DNA from: Clostridia bacterium
Lineage (GTDB): Bacteria; Bacillota; Clostridia; UMGS1883
Reading direction: 5' to 3'
Length of the DNA stretch: 64,000 nt
NCBI GenBank assembly: GCA_045594665.1
Contig: JAZNYX010000053.1
Span: 5,747-69,746, forward strand
Shown here: positions 2,514 to 64,000 of the stretch, in pieces
How positions within the stretch are numbered: the first letter of the stretch is position 1
How the letters are laid out: the number at the start of each line of letters is the position of its first letter
Made by a program: the position numbers and the translations under genes
Notes under the pieces: generated by a model
Database searches by the model: none
Seen by the model: only the letters and a program-made list of their open reading frames with translations
What the model was told of the DNA's origin: nothing

Positions 2514-2515
2514 TG

Positions 2516-2740
2516 CGGGATGTTAAAAATGCCCAGAACATTCGTTGGCGGTTTTATAATTTGAGATAACACTATTTTATAATAACAAGGTTTTCGGTAG
2601 AAATCCGCAAGACGGATTTCCGCTTTGATGCCAACGAATTACGAACAAACTTCACCTCTCGACGTACCCTCGTACGCCTTCGGGTAACCCACGGCAAGCC
2701 GTGGTTCAGTTTGTTCGTTCTGAACATTTTTTCCTATCCC
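2516..2740 (+). repeat. Structured intergenic repeat, copy 1 (subfamily A)
   Basis: 5' GGGATGTTAAAAATG and 3' TTTTTTCCTATCCC termini. Internal hairpin GAAATCCG/CGGATTTC. 3' domain GAACAAACTTCACCTCTCG...GGTTCAGTTTGTTC is shared with the copies at 29834, 33604 and 36671. Confidence 0.85.
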
Positions 2741-2841
2741 TTAAATTCATAAAACTAAATTGTCATTCTGAGGAGCTTGCTACGAAGAATCTCTTAGAAT
2801 GACAATTTCACATTTAAAACTTTTTAATCGAGGATGTTACT

Positions 2842-4152: not shown

Positions 4153-4158
4153 ACTAAA

Positions 4159-4191
4159 AATAATGCTGTGACAATGTGTCACAGCATTATT
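4159..4191. terminator. Hairpin terminator between convergent trmFO and membrane-protein gene
   Basis: Perfect 15-bp stem AATAATGCTGTGACA / TGTCACAGCATTATT with a 3-nt loop, starting 7 nt after the trmFO stop. Confidence 0.6.
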
Positions 4192-4195
4192 TAAA

Positions 4196-4288
4196 GGGGA
4201 TAGGAAATTTCACGATTTAATCGCGAGCAAAATTTGTCAGTTTTGTATTTAGTCAGGTCGCGAAATGGGTGAAGCGGCACGCTTCTTT
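4196..4288 (-). repeat. Degenerate or miniature relative of the intergenic repeat family
   Basis: Minus-strand reading ends in TTTCCTATCCCC and contains CTTCACC plus a stem TTCAC..TCGCGA / TCGCGA..GTGAA. It lies directly after the stop of the minus-strand gene 4289-4705. Confidence 0.4.
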
Positions 4289-4705
4289 TTAGTCTATATC
4301 ACGGTCACAACCTGCAACGCACTTTACAAGGCACGCAGTAGAAGTAATTATCAGTGAGAAAAACGTAAGAAGCAGTCCCGTTATGATTGCTCCGGCAATA
4401 CTGGTTGCCGCAAAGGTAATAGCAAGAAGTATTACCGACGTGAGAACCGTACCTAAAATCCCCGCAAGGAAAAGAGGAAGAATGGGACACAGGCAATCTC
4501 GGAGATACGGTCTGCCGGGCGACAGTGCCAAAAGTGATATTGCAAGATAACCCACAGCTATACCGAAAGTAGTCCACAAAAATGCAGGAGCTACGGTTAT
4601 AACAGCAGTAATTCTGAGAACTGTTGCAACTACGCCGATAATAATACTTGCGATAATAGCAAGAGCACCGCAGCTATTTCTGCAGCTGCAAGAACAATTA
4701 TACAT
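4289..4705 (-). CDS. Cys-rich polytopic membrane protein, function unknown
   Basis: GGGAGGTG RBS 7 nt upstream. About 4 hydrophobic segments. Cys clusters at both ends (MYNCSCSCRNSC..., ...ACLVKCVAGCD). Confidence 0.6.
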   Translation of the reverse strand: MYNCSCSCRNSCGALAIIASIIIGVVATVLRITAVITVAPAFLWTTFGIAVGYLAISLLALSPGRPYLRDCLCPILPLFLAGILGTVLTSVILLAITFAATSIAGAIITGLLLTFFSLIITSTACLVKCVAGCDRDID

Positions 4706-7056: not shown

Positions 7057-7818
7057 TTATTCCATAAGACCGATATTCCTCTCAAGGACACCTTTCCCCC
7101 TCCAGGAAAAGGCTCGGTTTTTATACTTTTTCATAAATCCACGGTTTGAAAGGCTTTCAAGCTCGGAGAGGGAAATAGAGTCAATTAAATCCTCGGTAAA
7201 CTCTTTCAGTGGTTTTGGTGTAATATTATTATGTGGGCAAACCCTCTGGCACGTGTCGCAACCAAATACAAGACCTGATTTTTTTAGTATGGCGATTTCA
7301 CTTTCCGTGAGGTCGCCTTTTTTCTGGCTTATATGAGAGGCACATTTGTTAATATCAAATTCTTCTCCCAAGGCACCGCCGGGGCAATTTTCTATGCACC
7401 GATTACAGCCCATACAGGCTTTTTGAAGCGGTGTGTCGGGGGCTAAATCTAAATCACATAAAATATATCCTATGAAAAAGTAGCTCCCGAAATCATCGTT
7501 AATAAGCATTTTGTTTTTTCCGTAGAACCCAAGCCCTGCCTCATAAGCTAACCTTCTGTCAACTTCGGGACCGATATCGGCAAAAATTTCGCACTCCGTA
7601 TCGGAGGCAAGGGTACGAATGAAGTCGCATACAGGGGAGAGCTTTTCCTTTATAACCAAGTGGTAATCAAGACCTCTTGCATATAAAGAAAGATTACCGT
7701 CACTCTCACCGCAGTAGTAGGGAAAAAGGCAGACTATTGCACTTTTTTCTCCATAGCGTGCAATGCCGCACTTTTCAATGCCAAGAGAATGTATGAAATT
7801 AAAAATTTTGTTTTTCAT
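7057..7818 (-). CDS. queG: Epoxyqueuosine reductase QueG-like 4Fe-4S protein
   Basis: Two ferredoxin-type clusters (CMGCNRCIENCP, CDTCQRVCP) follow a DUF1730-like N-terminus. Confidence 0.65.
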   Translation of the reverse strand: MKNKIFNFIHSLGIEKCGIARYGEKSAIVCLFPYYCGESDGNLSLYARGLDYHLVIKEKLSPVCDFIRTLASDTECEIFADIGPEVDRRLAYEAGLGFYGKNKMLINDDFGSYFFIGYILCDLDLAPDTPLQKACMGCNRCIENCPGGALGEEFDINKCASHISQKKGDLTESEIAILKKSGLVFGCDTCQRVCPHNNITPKPLKEFTEDLIDSISLSELESLSNRGFMKKYKNRAFSWRGKGVLERNIGLME

Positions 7819-12862: not shown

Positions 12863-12935
12863 CCAAAAGGAGGATTTATGCCTCTGAAAAAAATAGAAAA
12901 ACAAAAAAATGTTCATTTTTTTTAAGAAAACAGAC

Positions 12936-12964
12936 TTGATTTTCGTCATTTGGCATGATAGAAT
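12936..12964 (+). promoter_or_regulatory. Sigma-A type promoter with extended -10 for the DUF4417 island
   Basis: TTGATT, 17 nt, TAGAAT, with TG one nt upstream of the -10. Confidence 0.5.
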
Positions 12965-13168
12965 GACCAAAAATCGAACAAATGTTTTTGAAAAAGGGGT
13001 GGTTTTATGATTGTAAAAGAAAAAGTACATTAGATAACTGTTCGAGCAGTTATCCAACGTACTTAATCACGGATATGCAAGATGCAAACCCTAACCAATT
13101 TGTATTTTAGCATATCTGTGAATTGAAATCAAGAATTAATTTTGATTCACAGGAGGAATTTTGCGAAA

Positions 13169-28970: not shown

Positions 28971-29828
28971 ATGTTTTGTAAATCTTGCGGAACTCAGCTA
29001 AATGACGGTGCGAAGTTTTGTAAAAACTGCGGCACAGCCGTTACATATGTAAGCGAAAAGAAAACAGCCGTGGAAAACACTGAAAAGTTTACCCCCGTGC
29101 AGCCCCAGCCTCCCGTGCAGGAGGTGAAGCAGACTGTCTATACACCCCCTGTTCAGCCTGCGATACCGCAAAAGAAAAAGGGTACATCACCCGTTCTTTA
29201 TGTGGTGCTTGGTATTGTTACGGTGCTACTAATTGCCGCAATAGTTGTTTTGGTGATGACTGTTAATAAAAAGAACAATAATGGCGGCGATGATAAAGGC
29301 GGTGTTGTAGAAAAAGAATATGAAATTTTCCTCACGGTAGACGAATATCAGGAAGAAACAGATGAAAAGTCCTGTACATTAAGCGGTACTATATCAACCG
29401 AGAAGGAAAAGGCAACGCTCAGCATTAACGGACAGAAGATTACCACTGTATCGGAAGATGACGGGGAAAAGGTATGGTCAAAGAAGGTAAATCTTGAAGA
29501 AGGAACAAACTCTTTTGATATTGTGCTTTATACTAAAGACAACACAAAGACAAAAACCGAGAATGTGGAAATAGAATATAAAAAGCCTTTGCTTTACCCC
29601 GAGGGAACAGTTCTTATAAAAGCAGACCCCGACGGTGTTAATATAAGACCTACTCCCGAAATCAGCGAAGAGAGGGTAATGCTTATTCCGTACGACGATT
29701 TTCAGTCGCAGTTTATATGCCAGGGTGAAGAACATCTTGATGAGGAGGAATTTATCTGGTGTAAGGTAATGACTCCCGACGGCAAAATCGGCTGGGTTAG
29801 ATCGGACTTAATGAAACCGCTTCAATAA
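28971..29828 (+). CDS. Zinc-ribbon / TM / SH3b-like domain protein
   Basis: CKSCGTQLNDGAKFCKNCG zinc ribbon, Pro-rich linker, one TM segment, C-terminal GKIGWVRSDL SH3-like motif. Confidence 0.6.
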   Translation: MFCKSCGTQLNDGAKFCKNCGTAVTYVSEKKTAVENTEKFTPVQPQPPVQEVKQTVYTPPVQPAIPQKKKGTSPVLYVVLGIVTVLLIAAIVVLVMTVNKKNNNGGDDKGGVVEKEYEIFLTVDEYQEETDEKSCTLSGTISTEKEKATLSINGQKITTVSEDDGEKVWSKKVNLEEGTNSFDIVLYTKDNTKTKTENVEIEYKKPLLYPEGTVLIKADPDGVNIRPTPEISEERVMLIPYDDFQSQFICQGEEHLDEEEFIWCKVMTPDGKIGWVRSDLMKPLQ

Positions 29829-29833
29829 AAAGT

Positions 29834-30063
29834 GGGGATGTTAAAAATGTCCAGACCGCAAAAAGGCAACTTAAAAGAAAATTTAGATAGCATAAATAAT
29901 AAATAATACATTACTGTTGAAAAATCGTATTTATACGATTTTTCTTCTTTTTTAAGCCTTTTTGCTATGAACAAACTTCACCTCTCGCTGTATACACATA
30001 CAGCTTCGGGAAAGCCCCTTCGGGGTTCAGTTTGTCCATTCTGAAGCATTTTTTCCTATCCCC
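29834..30063 (+). repeat. Structured intergenic repeat, copy 2 (subfamily B)
   Basis: GGGGATGTTAAAAATG ... TTTTTTCCTATCCCC. Stems GCAAAAAGGC/GCCTTTTTGC, GAAAAATCGTAT/ATACGATTTTTC, CTGTAT/ATACAG and CCCC-TTCG-GGGG. Confidence 0.85.
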
Positions 30064-30146
30064 ACGTAAAGGCGATATAAAAAACAGACTTTTTTATATC
30101 AAATTCCTTCATTTCGAATTTTGAACTTCGCATTTTGAACTATCCA

Positions 30147-30554
30147 TTAGCCTGAAAAGTCTTCTATCATTTGCAGTGCCTCGCTTATACTGTCAAATCT
30201 GATTCCCTCTGCAAGCTGCGCTCTGTCTGATTCGGGGAGCAGATTAACGCTGATGTCGTAGGTCTGCCACAGCTTTTCCTCACTGCCACTCCCTAAGTAA
30301 AGTGCCAGAATGCCGTCCTGCTCTTTTAAAATGTATTTCGGAACGGTTTCCTCGCTTTTTTTTACAGTGAGGTCATTTTCTTTGCTTGAAACACTGCTTA
30401 TCTTTTCTCTTTCCGGCGTAACGGAAACACGTTCGTAAAGAGAGCGTGATCTGGATTTTTCGCCGCGTACCCCCTGAATATACCCTATCATTGATGAGAA
30501 AAATGTAGTGGTTATAAGAATGGCTGCAAAAACAGCTTTTCTGTTAAAATTCAT
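30147..30554 (-). CDS. BofC-like domain protein (membrane anchored)
   Basis: N-terminal TM segment. C-terminal YILKEQDGILALY...LLPESDRAQLAEGIRFDS..ALQMIEDF resembles the BofC C-terminal domain. Confidence 0.45.
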   Translation of the reverse strand: MNFNRKAVFAAILITTTFFSSMIGYIQGVRGEKSRSRSLYERVSVTPEREKISSVSSKENDLTVKKSEETVPKYILKEQDGILALYLGSGSEEKLWQTYDISVNLLPESDRAQLAEGIRFDSISEALQMIEDFSG

Positions 30555-33058: not shown

Positions 33059-33595
33059 ATGAATTATAAAGAATATTTAGTAAAAAGAAAGTTAGGCGCC
33101 GCAGAAATATTGGTTACGGTTATGCTTTATTTCGCAGCGTTTATGTTGGCTCTTTGCTGCCTTTATTATCTGCGTATGCTTGGCGGCATTGAAAGTTTAT
33201 TGGCAGCGGGTGCATTTTACCTGGCGTATATTCTCGCATCCAGACTCAAGAAAGAATTTGAGTATATAATTGTTGAAGACTCGGTAGATATTGATGTCAT
33301 TTTCAATGCATCAAAAAGAAAAAATCTGATATCTTTTTCCGTAAAGCAAATTGAGGTAATGGCGGCAATAAATGATGCGAAATATAATAGCCGTCTTAAG
33401 GAACAATTTGATAAGGTTATAGATGCTTCCACATGGAAAAAAGGTGCCGTAGTATATTTCACCATTCTTGAAAATAAGGGACAAAAGACAATTGTAAAGT
33501 TCGAACCGTCTTTAGCATGTCTGGAATATATGAAGAAATATGCTCCCGACAAAATTCACATAAGCACTGCGGCAGACGATAACGAATTTGAATAA
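33059..33595 (+). CDS. Hypothetical two-TM membrane protein
   Basis: GGAGA RBS and two N-terminal hydrophobic helices. No motif recognised. Confidence 0.5.
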   Translation: MNYKEYLVKRKLGAAEILVTVMLYFAAFMLALCCLYYLRMLGGIESLLAAGAFYLAYILASRLKKEFEYIIVEDSVDIDVIFNASKRKNLISFSVKQIEVMAAINDAKYNSRLKEQFDKVIDASTWKKGAVVYFTILENKGQKTIVKFEPSLACLEYMKKYAPDKIHISTAADDNEFE

Positions 33596-33603
33596 AACAT
33601 ATT

Positions 33604-33836
33604 GGGGATGTTAAAAAACTCCGGATCGCAAAAAGGCAGAAATAAAGTAATTTATGAAAAGCATAAAAGCTAAAGAAAGCTGTATTTTGGTTGAAAAATC
33701 TCAGTATACTCGATTTTTCCCCATTTTAAGCCTTTTTGCTACGAACAAACTTCACCTCTCGCTGTATACACATACAGCTTCGGGCACACCCCTTCGGGGT
33801 TCAGTTTGTCCGTTCTGAAGCTTTTTTCCTATCCCC
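33604..33836 (+). repeat. Structured intergenic repeat, copy 3 (subfamily B)
   Basis: Termini and 3' domain are near-identical to copy 2. Stem GCAAAAAGGC (33628-33637) / GCCTTTTTGC (33730-33739). Confidence 0.85.
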
Positions 33837-33877
33837 AAGAAAGAGGGGTGTAAAGCTTTTTTACACCCCTCTTTCTT
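33837..33877. other. Perfect 18-bp hairpin abutting repeat copy 3
   Basis: AAGAAAGAGGGGTGTAAA / TTTACACCCCTCTTTCTT with a 5-nt loop. No T-run on either side of the 3' arm. Confidence 0.6.
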
Positions 33878-33910
33878 AAAAAATGCCTGTATGGCGGAAC
33901 GGAGTAAGAT

Positions 33911-36616: not shown

Positions 36617-36670
36617 ATGCAAAATTAATGAAGAGGGTGCAAAAAATCATTTTTTGCACCCTCTTCATTT

Positions 36671-36907
36671 GGGGATGGAAAAAATAGTGCAGAACGGACA
36701 AACTGAGCCACGGCTTGCCGTGGGTTACCCGAAGGCGTACGCGGGTACGTCGAGAGGTGAAGTTTGTTCGTAGTTCATTGGCATAAAAAAGAGGAAATCC
36801 GTAAAATTTACGGATTTCCACCAAAAACCATATTTTCAAGAATTTTTTTAGTTTTAGAAATACATATTGAGAGCCAATGAACGGTCGGTGCTGCTTTTTG
36901 CATCCCC
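36671..36907 (-). repeat. Structured intergenic repeat, copy 4 (subfamily A, inverted)
   Basis: The reverse complement reads GGGGATGCAAAAAGC ... TTTTTTCCATCCCC. Stems GTTCATTGGC/GCCAATGAAC, GGAAATCCGTAAA/TTTACGGATTTCC, CGTAC/GTACG and CCACGG/CCGTGG. Confidence 0.85.
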
Positions 36908-38080
36908 TTACATATGTTCGGATACAAATTCGCCAATTCTTTCCAGTGCTTTTTCTATGTTTTTAATGCTATAGGCATAACTGCAGCGGATAAAGCCTTC
37001 GCCGCTTTCGCCAAAGGCTGTGCCGGGTACTACGGCTACCTTTTTTTCATAAAGGAGCTTTGTGGCAAATTCCTCGCTTGTAAGTCCCGTGGCACTTATA
37101 TTGGGAAATACGTAGAACGCACCAAGGGGTTCAAAGCAGCTAAGTCCCATTTCGCGAAAGCCGTTTACCATAACACGGCGGCGATGGTCGTATTCACTAC
37201 GCATGTATTCGACCTCGTCATCACAGCTTCGCATTGCCTCAATAGCCGCATACTGGCTAGTGGTGGGGGCACACATAATTGCGTACTGATGAATTTTCGT
37301 CATCTGCTTTATAACAGGTTCGGGACCACAGGCATAGCCGAGCCTCCAACCCGTCATTGCAAATGCCTTACTAAAGCCGTTTACGGTTACTGTCCTTTCC
37401 CACATATCATCTATTGCCGCAAAGGGAACATGGGGATTTCCCGTATAATTAAGCTCGCCGTAAATTTCGTCCGAAAGAACAAAAAGATTATGCTCTTTTA
37501 CAATCTTTGCGATTTTTTCAAGATCCTCCTTTTCCATTACAGCCCCTGTGGGGTTATTGGGGAATGGAAGAATAAGAAGCTTTGACTTAGGTGTGATTTT
37601 TTCAAGGAGCTTTTCGGCAGTCAGCTTGAAATTATCCTTTTCCTCTGTCTGAATAGTAACGGGAGTTCCCCCTGCCATAATAGTGCAGGGCTTGTAGCAA
37701 ACGAAGCAGGGTTCGGGAATCAGCACCTCATCCCCGGGAGAAATTATTGCACGTATAAGAAGGTCAATAGCTTCGCTTCCGCCTACGGTAACAAGAGTCT
37801 CCGTTTTGGGATTGTAGCGTAGATTATACTTTCGCATCAAATAGCTGCAAATCTCGCTTCTAAGCTCTAACAGACCGCTGTTTGCACTGTAGTGGGTGCG
37901 TCCCTTTTCCAAGGAATAAATACCTGCCTCCCTGACTGCCCATGGGGTTACAAAGTCAGGCTCGCCTACGCCTAAGGATATTACGTCCTTCATCTCGGCA
38001 GCCACATCAAAAAATTTTCGGATGCCGCTGGGTGCAAGGGAAGAAATGTTTTCCGATATTAGTTTTGAATAATCTATCAT
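36908..38080 (-). CDS. Class I/II pyridoxal-phosphate aminotransferase
   Basis: 390 aa. SKAFAMTGWRLGY carries the PLP lysine. NPTG motif present. Confidence 0.85.
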   Translation of the reverse strand: MIDYSKLISENISSLAPSGIRKFFDVAAEMKDVISLGVGEPDFVTPWAVREAGIYSLEKGRTHYSANSGLLELRSEICSYLMRKYNLRYNPKTETLVTVGGSEAIDLLIRAIISPGDEVLIPEPCFVCYKPCTIMAGGTPVTIQTEEKDNFKLTAEKLLEKITPKSKLLILPFPNNPTGAVMEKEDLEKIAKIVKEHNLFVLSDEIYGELNYTGNPHVPFAAIDDMWERTVTVNGFSKAFAMTGWRLGYACGPEPVIKQMTKIHQYAIMCAPTTSQYAAIEAMRSCDDEVEYMRSEYDHRRRVMVNGFREMGLSCFEPLGAFYVFPNISATGLTSEEFATKLLYEKKVAVVPGTAFGESGEGFIRCSYAYSIKNIEKALERIGEFVSEHM

Positions 38081-49379: not shown

Positions 49380-49498
49380 ACTTACTTAAAATGCAAGAAA
49401 AATTTTTAAAAACTTACGTAAAAAGTATTGACTTTCGTCATTTCGTGTTTTATACTGACTTACGTAAAAAGTAAGAAAGTAAAAATACTTACATGAAA
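49380..49498. promoter_or_regulatory. Phage immunity region: early rightward promoter flanked by repeated operators
   Basis: TTGACT (49428-33), 17 nt, TATACT (49451-56). ACTTACGTAAAAAGTA occurs at 49412-49427 and 49458-49473. Diverged copies at 49380-49393 and 49487-49498. Confidence 0.6.
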
Positions 49499-56273: not shown

Positions 56274-57383
56274 ATGGCAAGCTTTAATCTCGGAAGAATA
56301 AAAGGCGATAAAGGTGATAAGGGCGATACAGGTGCAAAGGGTGACAAGGGCGATAGAGGAGAAAGAGGGGAAAAAGGAAGCGATGCTCAAACTCCCGTTT
56401 TCACAATAGGTGATACAAAGACGCTTCCTTCATCTGAGGAAGCGTATGTGGAATTAAATACAAAGGATATATTAAATCCCGTTCTCAGCTTTTCCATTCC
56501 CCGCGGTCATGACGGAAAAGACGCCGACGGCGACATGAAGTCAGCAGTGTATGATCCTGAGGGACTAAATCAGGATATATTTGCTTACGCAAGGAATCTT
56601 GCAGATGCTTGTATAAAAAAAGACGGCGGAAGGCTTTCGGGTGCTCTTGATGCAGGTGAAAATTCTCTGGAACTTCCTTGTGTGCGTAATGTGTCGGTTG
56701 TCACGTCACTTCCCGAAAGCGGAGCAAACGGCGATATCTGCATTATAGTAGAGGAGGAAAACGGCAAAAAGCTTGGCGAGTGTGCAGTTGGTACTTCATT
56801 TTTGGTAACTGAGGGAGAAACCGAGTGCGAATATATCATTATCGGAAAAAACTTTCATGGGGAAAACAGTGTGACACTTGTAAGAAAACACCTTACGGAT
56901 ATAGTCCTTCAGTTAGATACCAGTGCCCGTGTGTCATATGCTATGAGTGATACAGATGTATTCCTTGAAACAATGTATATAAACCTTTTCCCCGAAAGAA
57001 TAAGAAAGCTTCTGATGCTTACAAACATTGAAAACGGTTTTATGCGCAGGTGCTTTCCGCTCGCTTATACGGAGCTTTATTCCATGGAATATTTTTCCTC
57101 GACGGACCTGAGATGTGCCACAAAAAAGGGAACTTCCACAAAGAGCGTATACTTCACAAGAAGCGTATCCGATAGCAACAATGCCTACGGGGTGTCGGAT
57201 GTAGGAAATTTTACCACTCTGAGAAAATCTGCACAATACCCTTTAAGACCGGCAATAGTGCTTCCTTACGATACCGTGGTGGCAAACACGGAATATAATT
57301 CTTCTCCGGCAGTGAAGCTTTATGACGCGCCCTGCGGAATATATGTTTTCTCCGGCGGAAAATGGAAGGAGTGTAGGGATTGA
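56274..57383 (+). CDS. Collagen-like repeat protein (fibre or decoration)
   Basis: Nine G-X-Y triplets (GDKGDKGDTGAKGDKGDRGERGEKGSD) at 56304-56384. GGAGG RBS favours ATG 56274. Confidence 0.7.
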   Translation: MASFNLGRIKGDKGDKGDTGAKGDKGDRGERGEKGSDAQTPVFTIGDTKTLPSSEEAYVELNTKDILNPVLSFSIPRGHDGKDADGDMKSAVYDPEGLNQDIFAYARNLADACIKKDGGRLSGALDAGENSLELPCVRNVSVVTSLPESGANGDICIIVEEENGKKLGECAVGTSFLVTEGETECEYIIIGKNFHGENSVTLVRKHLTDIVLQLDTSARVSYAMSDTDVFLETMYINLFPERIRKLLMLTNIENGFMRRCFPLAYTELYSMEYFSSTDLRCATKKGTSTKSVYFTRSVSDSNNAYGVSDVGNFTTLRKSAQYPLRPAIVLPYDTVVANTEYNSSPAVKLYDAPCGIYVFSGGKWKECRD

Positions 57384-63185: not shown

Positions 63186-64000
63186 ATGAACAGTATTACA
63201 ATAAATATAAACGGGCAATTTATTAAGAAATCCACGAAAAACGCAGGGGCGGCAGGAAGTGCAAATTCTCGTGAGTTGAAATTTATATTTGACAAAAGCT
63301 GGGAAGGATTCGCAAAGAGAGTTATCTGGCGTGACAGCTTCGGAGAAAATGAAACCTCCGTCATTCTGACTCCGCAAATTGCATCCGAAACTTTGGAATA
63401 TTCCTCATATATTCCCCAGGAAGCCACTACAAAAACAGGCTGGTGCAGCTTCACAGTAGAGGGATATTACACAGCCTCGCCCGACAAGGTTATGATGAGT
63501 GTGCGCGATTGCCTTTTCGTTTCCCATGCAGAGGGAGAGGCAAATATTCCTCCCGTAACAAAGAGCGAGGCAATGCAGCTTCAAAGTGAAATTGAGGAAA
63601 TTATGCCAAAGGTAAACGACCTGATGGAAAAGACCAAAGGTGAAGTATCAGCACTTTCGCAAAGGCTGCTTTTGTGGGAGGAATATAACTCAAAAACTCA
63701 TTATGAGGCAGGTAACAAAGTTACTTTTAACGGCTCTTCCTTTGTATGCAGACAAAATTGCATCGGGGTATCGCCTGAAAATGAAGAATTCTGGCTTATG
63801 ATAGCCGCCCGCGGATATCGGGGAAGTAAAGGAAATCAAGGCCCTCAAGGAATCCGCGGAGAAGTGGGCGAAAAAGGTGAAAAGGGTGATAAAGGCGATA
63901 AAGGAGACCAAGGCGAAAGGGGAGAACGGGGTCTAAACGGCAGCGTTGTTCCCGCAAACGGATTTTACAGCTTCAGTGTTGATGAAAACGGTGACTTATG
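63186..64000 (+). CDS. Tail fibre / receptor-binding-like protein with collagen-like repeats (3' end outside window; not in the ORF track)
   Basis: My own translation from ATG 63186 (AGGAGA RBS) has no stop to the window end. Features: BppU-like N-terminus, a CBM5/12-like YEAGNKVTFNGSSFVCRQ...EFW motif, and 14 G-X-Y triplets at 63813-63938. Confidence 0.7.
   Translation, partial: MNSITININGQFIKKSTKNAGAAGSANSRELKFIFDKSWEGFAKRVIWRDSFGENETSVILTPQIASETLEYSSYIPQEATTKTGWCSFTVEGYYTASPDKVMMSVRDCLFVSHAEGEANIPPVTKSEAMQLQSEIEEIMPKVNDLMEKTKGEVSALSQRLLLWEEYNSKTHYEAGNKVTFNGSSFVCRQNCIGVSPENEEFWLMIAARGYRGSKGNQGPQGIRGEVGEKGEKGDKGDKGDQGERGERGLNGSVVPANGFYSFSVDENGDL

Follow-up and report, generated by a model that had tools for sequence, protein, structure and literature searches.

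The DNA considered here is a stretch of 64,000 nt (hereafter the window, with coordinates counted from its first letter) from a Clostridia bacterium (GTDB lineage Bacteria; Bacillota; Clostridia; UMGS1883), and corresponds to positions 5,747-69,746 of the forward strand of contig JAZNYX010000053.1 in assembly GCA_045594665.1. Repeat finding and alignment revealed in it four full copies of a repeat of about 235 nt, here called F1, each of which starts GGGGATG(T/C)...AAAAA and ends TTTTT(T)CC(T)ATCCCC, the 19-mer core occurring four times in the window against 0.01 occurrences expected. Copy 1 (2516-2741, plus strand) follows the stop codon of topA (2511-2513) after a spacer TG(C) of 2-3 nt; copy 2 (29834-30063, plus) follows that of a zinc-ribbon gene (29826-29828) after AAAGT, i.e. 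5 nt; copy 3 (33604-33836, plus) follows that of a DUF6106 gene (33593-33595) after the 8 nt AACATATT; and copy 4 (36671-36907, minus), with its 5' end GGGGATGC at 36907 and its 3' end CCATCCCC at 36671, begins 0 nt after that of an aminotransferase gene (36908-36910). An initial annotation of this DNA had already given these gene names (the DUF6106 gene as that of a membrane protein) and stop-to-element distances and had stated that the orientation of each copy, the inverted one included, is that of the gene upstream; all of this is borne out, the names being upheld by Pfam (topoisomerase I, zinc ribbon, DUF6106, class I/II aminotransferase). As judged from the layout of open reading frames (ORFs) and the annotated genes, the window is mostly plus-strand, and three minus-strand genes, namely the aminotransferase gene, a 138-aa ORF (4289-4705) and a BofC-like gene, each bear a minus-oriented element at their stop codon, which for the latter two belongs to the sister modules F2 and F3 described below.

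Related loci were gathered solely with an internal 19-mer of the F1 core, in a scan of one genome per species that returned at least 115 stretches (L001-L115). Among these at least 115 listed matches the F1-bearing stretches are all from Clostridia metagenome-assembled genomes (MAGs) of human and ruminant guts, and the first 80 loci listed derive from at least 48 assemblies; a profile search with F1 gave 142 matches, 105 of them full length. Since the selection motif is internal to F1, the position of the copies relative to genes is unbiased, while the invariance of the 19-mer is itself an effect of ascertainment, a bias of which the adjoining conserved blocks are free. Exact-protein look-ups of the window proteins returned no matches, and the further relatives used for the comparison of empty sites came from homologue searches with these proteins. 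A 23-kb IMG/VR contig classed as viral (L196) also carries two F1 core 19-mers (2779-2797 and 7469-7487); no other viral contig matched.

A copy was counted as placed behind a gene when an open frame of 80 codons or more on the same strand ended between -14 and +18 nt of its 5' end. This is the case for 78 of 95 evaluable copies (82%), against 8 of 92 (9%) in a mirror control, in which the 3' end and the opposite strand were scored, and against 5% of random positions in the same loci. The orientation-specific placement at gene 3' ends, proposed in the initial annotation from a handful of copies, is therefore found far beyond chance in a multi-locus census. The distance from stop codon to F1 peaks at -1 to +3 nt, with a tail reaching +15, and at 16-69 nt from a co-oriented stop the distance survey found no copy at all. 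Another cluster, of 11 copies, lies at -8 to -11 nt, where the ORF enters F1 and ends at the element's own TAA or TGA within the first dozen bases; pneumococcal BOX likewise provides the stop codon for 36 genes (PMC3049150). The distances measured 3' of F1 range from 20 to 250 nt. Of 92 copies, 55 have a convergent gene as downstream neighbour, with F1 still close against the co-oriented stop, and the element was found behind 72 different genes, with just six orthologous pairs among them. Where these loci have element-free gene ends, the median start of the best hairpin is at 15 nt, and 49% of such hairpins start beyond 15 nt, so that the reference point is the stop codon and not the hairpin; yet at two sites the start of F1 coincides exactly with the foot of the hairpin found in relatives.

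It is the adjacent gene that sets the orientation of F1, not whichever gene strand predominates locally. For stop-adjacent copies whose locus measures 6 kb or more, the rest of the coding sequence there lies mostly on the F1 strand in 28 cases and mostly on the opposite strand in 22, and is mixed in 21; with the local majority strand as a proxy, the same split rejects a tie of orientation to the replication strand. The stop codons beside F1, in 67 stop-adjacent copies from L001-L115 and the window, are TAA in 54, TAG in 10 and TGA in 3, whereas the long ORFs of the same loci end with TAA in 62%, TAG in 13% and TGA in 25%, TGA being thus clearly depleted beside the element. No fixed motif was found on either side of the F1 junctions, where the flank matrix contains A-richness only, and no target-site duplication, the longest flank repeats being equal to those of a permuted control, in agreement with the comparison of empty and filled sites. 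That the stop codon is part of F1 is rejected at the DUF6106 and zinc-ribbon sites, where relatives share the same stop and spacer, and stays possible for the 11 copies with an ORF ending inside.

The anatomy of F1, whose copies measure 193-260 nt, was derived from an 80-copy alignment and its consensus fold. Its two ends, GGGGATGT(T)AAAAA at 5' and TTTTTCCTATCCCC at 3', pair with each other, and these terminal inverted repeats, which build the terminal helix P1, covary by subfamily (GGGGCTG with CAGCCCC, GGGAATG with CAATTCCC, GAGAATG with CATTCTC). Within P1 a 10-bp helix, P2, closes about 145 nt; a variable AT-rich stretch, the only long part of F1 without conserved structure, is followed by an internal hairpin; then come the core ACGAACAAACTTCACCTCTCG, hairpin P4 and CTTCGGG; and, lastly, an optional hairpin P5 precedes GTTCAGTTTGTCCGTTCTG, which pairs back to the core to form P3. 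For P2, P3 and P4 taken together, 97.7% of 1915 alignment cells are paired, against 83% after shuffling and 21-40% when partners are slid, and compensatory two-sided changes are seen in 17 of 24 pairs (283 cells). G-U pairs account for about 0.5% of the 1915 helix cells (about 10) and are no commoner than A-C (about 14). Wobble-pair asymmetry, considered as a test of RNA against DNA, was uninformative beyond this rarity of G-U; DNA may be where the fold is read, or pairing in the helices may just be strict. Large insertions are confined to hairpin tips (about 280 nt at P5 in L003, 4272-4549; about 200 nt at P4 in L093, 309-509), and one compact copy (L039, 1735-1902) lacks both the AT-rich region and the internal hairpin, from which the peripheral arms emerge as dispensable or expandable and the core as kept. 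F1 contains no conserved ORF and no conserved -35/-10 promoter pair, a single 10/12 match being antisense and limited to one copy; Rfam 15 gave no gathering-level match in the whole window and nothing relevant on F1 at E<=10 or E<=1.

Each element had also been credited with a hairpin and T-run, and hence with supplying or replacing the terminator of its host gene. All 99 of 99 copies do have the hairpin, yet the 8 nt that follow it contain five or more T in just 39 of the 99. In the window two of the four copies pass a terminator-like scan, namely copy 4 (36793-36819, minus), where the hairpin is followed by TCTTTTTT, and copy 2 (hairpin and T-run at 29919-29944, plus). Given the T-run in 39 of 99 copies, the loss of the hairpin in L039 and the occurrence of F1 inside operons that require read-through, such as topA-trmFO, the internal hairpin is not a conserved terminator. 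Replacement of the terminator, on the other hand, looks real at two sites, where relatives have a terminator hairpin 4-7 nt past the stop and the window lacks it, having a palindrome after F1 instead; the agent of replacement would then be this trailing palindrome, not the internal hairpin as had been supposed.

Abutting the 3' end of copy 4 is a 20-bp palindrome with a T-rich tail (36626-36670, minus), whose 5' arm GAGGGTGCAAAAAATG is similar to the F1 5' end GGGGATGCAAAAAG. The palindrome AAGAAAGAGGGGTGTAAAGC...ACACCCCTCTTTCTT (33836-33878, plus) abuts copy 3, and a shorter version of it is retained without F1 in L198-L201. Behind copy 2, an AT-rich palindrome GATATAAAAAACAGACTTTTTTATATC (30074-30100, unstranded) occupies the position of the bidirectional terminator GGAATTCG...CGAATTCC of relatives. 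About 100 nt (2742-2841, plus) are co-inserted with copy 1; in them a relic with TTGCTACGAA is accompanied by a hairpin (about 2757-2808) and by GAGGATGTTACT (2830-2841), which is a partial repeat of the F1 5' end and is located, on our own reading, at the would-be Shine-Dalgarno position of trmFO. Across loci, a hairpin of at least 9 bp starts no more than 8 nt from the F1 3' end in 34 of 91 copies and none is found within 70 nt in 38 of 91, which rejects as a general rule that the F1 3' end abuts a terminator hairpin. Many trailing hairpins are unusual, with a loop-proximal A6:T6 stem and a 5' arm similar to F1's own 5' end, and a match of at least 12/16 to the copy's own 5' end occurs within 100 nt downstream in 19 of 94 copies and upstream in none, about five being expected by permutation. 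The palindrome GGAGCTGTAGCAAAATGA...TCATTTTGCTACAGCTCC follows F1 at four different sites (L031, L027, L088 and L022), and none of the other terminators of the window is of the trailing-palindrome type. F1, or the event that installs it, thus tends to bring its own palindrome; taken with the truncated second copies and tandem arrays that exist, this suggests the copying in of more than a single unit length.

The sequence at 4196-4288 (minus) had been taken for a degenerate copy of F1. It is not recognised by the F1 profile and represents a separate family of about 93 nt, F2; the placement claimed for it is nonetheless correct, as it lies 0 nt past the stop (4289-4291) of the 138-aa ORF. A 93-nt homologue (L117, 2675-2767) is found directly past the stop of the orthologous aminotransferase gene (87% aa), tandem arrays of two to four units occur in L014 (7255-7441) and L087 (2639-3001), a further locus is L007 (3551-3640), and four of five F2 arrays begin 0-15 nt past a co-oriented stop. 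F2 starts with AAAGAAGCGTGCCGCTTCACCC, ends with AATTTCCTATCCCC or the variant CCTATACGG, and is without a terminal inverted repeat; only two motifs are common to F1 and F2, CTTCACC(T/C) and the 3' end TTCCTATCCCC. After the window copy comes a palindrome AATAATGCTGTGACA...TGTCACAGCATTATT (4157-4193, minus), one arm of which is similar to the 5' ends, of GCTGTGACA type, that other F1 subfamilies have. F2 with its trailing hairpin (4154-4256, minus) scores 24-27 bits in Rfam against rli61, RsaE/RoxS and LhrC, for gathering thresholds of 50-110, scores to which the C-rich stretch and the terminator probably gave rise. The third module, F3, of 46 nt (30101-30146, minus), lies directly past the stop (30147-30149) of the BofC-like gene, which is convergent to the zinc-ribbon gene, and its start is similar to the F1 5' end. 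Of its motif TGCGAAGTTCAAAA...GAAATGAAGGA, the first part recurs in L213 (2779-2915), and related, non-identical versions are found in L070 (about 940-960) and in L012 and L020, downstream of their F1 copies. By their shared end modules, F1, F2 and F3 would form a small superfamily.

Comparison with orthologous loci, which had been suggested as a way to recover the empty site, did recover it at the DUF6106, zinc-ribbon and topA ends; in empty sites the stop is followed, 1-7 nt further on, by a terminator hairpin of ordinary type or by the next start codon. At the DUF6106 end, L197 (94% aa) and L202-L206 (88%) read TAA-AACGTAT followed by a hairpin ATCGCCGAAATTCCCG...CGGGAATTTCGGCGAT, L198-L201 (93%) read TAA-AATGTAT-TGGGGGTGTAAAGCTTTTACACCCCTCTTTCTT, and the window reads TAA-AACATAT-T[F1]AAGAAAGA-GGGGTGTAAAGCTTTTTTACACCCCTCTTTCTT; F1 starts at the position of the relatives' hairpin foot, and the window has no hairpin of the L197 type. 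Two readings fit the L198-type allele: the target before insertion, or the product of a deletion between the direct repeats GGGGATGT and GGGGTGT. The latter would account for the restriction to the filled allele of AAGAAAGA, a sequence complementary to the retained TCTTTCTT. At the zinc-ribbon/BofC pair, L207-L210 (86-92%) have one bidirectional terminator ACAAAAAGGAATTCG...CGAATTCCTTTTTGT 4-6 nt past the stop; in the window its 5' arm and loop are gone, and F1, a 10-nt spacer, the AT-rich palindrome and F3 are found instead.

Between topA and trmFO, L211 (98% aa) has TAA-T-ATG and L215 (86%) TAA-TAGT-ATG, while both the window and L212 (97%) carry an insert of 328 nt between the stop and start codons, which consists of F1 and the approximately 100 nt described above (relic, hairpin and GAGGATGTTACT). 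The two inserts (window 2514-2841, L212 2777-3104) are identical at 328 of 328 positions, whereas the flanking genes are 90-92% identical and their third positions 78%, differences resuming 13 nt upstream and 21 nt downstream. Such an identical insert points to a recent transfer or a re-insertion at exactly the same place. A different mosaic fills this junction in L213 and L214 (90%), where the F3 motif is joined by a GGGGGTGTAAAAAAA palindrome and by a piece of the F1 3' end in inverted orientation. The aminotransferase end is likewise occupied by different family members: F1 of subfamily A at distance 0 in the window, F2 in L117, and, in L107 (94% over the last 51 residues), F1 of subfamily B, with a P2 that is different but fully compensated and with the aminotransferase ORF ending inside the element; orthologues further away have an empty site. 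Among metagenomic relatives of the aminotransferase the closest (97% aa) is on a contig of 1772 nt (L116, JAEIGA010577167.1) that ends 15 codons before the stop, as would result if the assembly had broken at a repeat directly following the gene. Orthologous F1 copies in sister species are mosaics, with swapped (P5) hairpins and unalignable variable regions; their conserved core is about 95% identical at orthologous sites, for third codon positions of 61-63%.

What the data show is the placement rule and co-orientation, along with the lack of target duplication, the conserved fold, presence or absence among close relatives and the reuse of gene ends. On balance, F1 is probably a non-coding, non-autonomous mobile repeat of uncultured gut Clostridia that inserts directionally behind ORFs. 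It would enter the chromosome in the direction of transcription, without target duplication, landing in the few nucleotides that separate the stop codon from the next feature, be it the foot of a terminator hairpin or a start codon, and would most likely be transcribed from the upstream gene, as the 3' untranslated region (UTR) of that gene. Host terminator hairpins would often be lost in the process, a palindrome derived from the F1 5' end, commonly found after F1, would be the probable terminator, and the internal hairpin would be a structural arm. The enzyme responsible would act in trans and be encoded elsewhere, and the insertion machinery could read a signal tied to transcription or translation of the upstream gene, e.g. 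the single-stranded non-template DNA exposed after ribosomes leave. Placement would reflect an insertion preference more than selection; between targeting and selection, the two possibilities raised in the initial annotation, the evidence leans to targeting, on account of the reuse of the same ends and of the identical 328-nt insert, and the near lack of copies past terminators, in antisense or at 16-69 nt from the stop is not accounted for by selection alone.

Several points weigh against a mobile repeat with such a preference. The transcription-coupled single-strand step has no direct support; neither a recurrent transposase-like ORF nor a longer F1-like element was found in 115 loci of 8 kb, in which clustering of 1290 ORFs from all loci gave housekeeping families only. 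Selection alone must explain the precision at topA, where the spacer is 1 nt and other positions break a gene. The filled and empty DUF6106 alleles are equally readable as the outcome of the deletion mentioned above, and the 328-nt identity could be due to short-tract recombination between species, not to transposition. Gene conversion among copies would blur the distinction between inheritance and re-insertion and, as ascertainment relied on an exact 19-mer, the sample covers the conserved branch of the family only.

Of the other explanations, the one that survives best, a serious rival although we hold it to be unlikely, is that F1 is a domesticated 3'-UTR RNA device in which the distance from the stop is functional. 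The terminating ribosome, which reaches about 12-15 nt past the stop, would melt the 5' strand of P1, GGGGAUGU; the freed C-rich 3' strand CCUAUCCCC and/or the invariant single-stranded UCACCUC, which is also a 7-mer of the 16S rRNA 3' tail, would then pair with Shine-Dalgarno sequences or bind ribosome-related factors, with effects on translation, decay or coupling, in the manner reported for REPs that lie under 16 nt away from a stop codon and for C-rich Firmicute small RNAs (sRNAs). The range of -11 to +15 nt matches the reach of a terminating ribosome and the less-than-16-nt rule reported for Escherichia coli REPs, of which those closer to the stop affect translation (PMC12306157, citing Liang et al. 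2015). The C-rich, anti-Shine-Dalgarno-like character of both motifs common to F1 and F2, the weak match of F2 and its terminator to RsaE, LhrC and rli61, the depletion of TGA (3/67 against a background of 25%) and the partial 5'-end repeat at the would-be trmFO Shine-Dalgarno position at topA all speak for such a device. The rarity of G-U, with A-C as frequent, is however unusual for a selected RNA fold, and the Rfam scores of F2 are far under gathering. Copy number, tandem arrays, relics and presence/absence resemble selfish spread, and the high identity of the core against diverged third positions, which would otherwise favour function, is explicable by gene conversion, given the swapped P5 hairpins.

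A related thought, which must be called doubtful, is that the end of translation itself is read, by the insertion machinery or by the RNA. It comes in two versions, to which this doubt applies jointly: integration might take place just past stops, where transcription uncoupled from ribosomes exposes one strand, and F1 would then be a mobile element whose target is defined by gene expression and not by sequence; or F1 might be a ribosome-sensing 3'-UTR switch, in which the terminating ribosome opens the terminal helix and frees anti-Shine-Dalgarno-like motifs. A link to translation termination would suit the depletion of TGA, the distances of -11 to +15 nt and the pair of C-rich motifs common to F1 and F2.

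Less probable again is insertion into any A/T-rich DNA, followed by purifying selection that spares the sense copies behind stops, the hairpins and palindromes of F1 being liable elsewhere to block promoters or downstream genes. The A-rich, motif-free flanks agree with it, as does the topA site, where the precision, in a spacer of 1 nt, has selection as its only explanation, and the enrichment of BOX, RUP and SPRITE between convergent genes or near 3' ends has been put down to tolerance (PMC3049150). Sites beyond terminators between convergent genes, and the antisense orientation, should, however, be equally harmless, yet the mirror control stands at 9% against 82%; the 55 of 92 copies that precede a convergent gene are still at the co-oriented stop; no copy lies 16-69 nt from such a stop, though hairpins at empty ends are often that far; and different family members repeatedly occupy the same gene ends. 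Finally, replication-tied, strand-specific single-strand transposition in the style of IS200/IS605 or PATEs, with the match to genes a mere consequence of their co-orientation with replication, is very improbable: it would suit the lack of target duplication, the clean empty sites, the folded structure with almost purely Watson-Crick covariation and the tandem head-to-tail arrays, but is largely refuted by minority-strand genes being followed as often as majority-strand ones (22 against 28) and is further opposed by the minus elements of the three minus-strand genes in the plus-strand region of the window, by the lack of a conserved 4-5-nt target motif 5' of F1, by terminal inverted repeats, of which IS200/IS605 have none, and by the absence of any Rfam match to IS605-orfB or HEARO.

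Elements of this kind are already known, namely REP/BIME, pneumococcal BOX/RUP/SPRITE, ERIC, Correia and bcr1; new in F1 are the sharper placement rule, the orientation determined by the gene and the modules that recolonize the same gene ends. Like REP, BIME and REPIN sequences, F1 is extragenic, structured, multi-copy and apparently co-transcribed in 3' UTRs; many of the REPs of E. coli are located 1-20 nt past a stop codon (PMC12306157), and the trailing palindromes of F1, of 27-45 nt, are REP-sized. F1 itself, however, is of about 235 nt, with five or six helices and a conserved single-stranded core, and lacks the REP/REPIN unit, a 20-40-nt imperfect palindrome (single or as a doublet) with a GTAG-type head; its adjacency is stronger (82%), it is strictly co-oriented and its hosts are Clostridia. 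Found in Firmicutes, the small repeats BOX, RUP and SPRITE mirror the coding strand and show enrichment where two genes converge (Croucher et al. 2011, PMC3049150), SPRITE being terminator-like and close to the 3' ends of coding sequences and the terminal inverted repeats of BOX and RUP pairing into duplexes (PMC3049150). F1 differs from them by the absence of sequence relation, target duplication and an IS-like partner, by a much tighter distance rule and by a covarying multi-helix core with expansions at hairpin tips only; nor is it SPRITE-like in having a hairpin and U-tract in every copy, as the 39 of 99 copies and L039 attest.

Miniature inverted-repeat transposable elements (ERIC, Correia/NEMIS, bcr1, the Tn3-derived TIMEs) are, like F1, short, non-coding and dispersed, with terminal inverted repeats; the classical ones are often co-transcribed and have orientation-dependent effects, and F1 ends start GGGG as in the Tn3 family. 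F1 has the inverted repeats, the small size and the non-coding character of this class, and differs from it in having no fixed-length target duplication, in the loss of host hairpins at insertion sites and in the partial repeat of the 5' end downstream. With IS200/IS605-derived PATEs and omega-RNA ends it shares the lack of target duplication, clean empty sites, folded ends and a single orientation; PATEs, in contrast, are without terminal inverted repeats, need a fixed target of 4-5 nt located 5' of their left end and have an orientation tied to replication, whereas the flank matrix of F1 is A-rich only and its orientation is unrelated to the local majority strand. The C-rich Firmicute sRNAs RsaE/RoxS and LhrC have a similar UCCCC stretch just before an intrinsic terminator, but are single- or few-copy genes with their own promoters, while F1 is repeated behind ORFs at more than 100 loci. 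Integron attC sites follow arrayed cassette ORFs beside an integrase and have R''/R' core sites; an attC identity is rejected by the dispersal of F1 behind housekeeping genes such as topA and the aminotransferase gene, at 72 sites, and no conserved motif whatsoever was found at its junctions, GTTRRRY itself not having been searched for.

That small repeats lie behind bacterial genes is known, how they get there is not, and F1 offers an unusually clean case for study. If its placement is mechanistic, it points to a way of recognizing the ends of ORFs; if functional, to a widespread 3'-UTR device in abundant uncultured gut Clostridia. In either case F1, which is absent from Rfam, can break assemblies and confuse the prediction of terminators and sRNAs in these MAGs.

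Two further pairs of repeats in the window were noted. At 56292-56387 and 63846-63941, about 7.5 kb apart, lie 9-nt periodic GGN-rich repeats (AAAGGTGATAAGGGCGAT...), which look like coding repeats of collagen-like Gly-X-Y type. At 12922-12967 and 49414-49459, two 46-nt stretches, 72% alike, read TTGA(T/C)TTTCGTCATTT...GAC with promoter-like hexamers, and may constitute a shared regulatory site.

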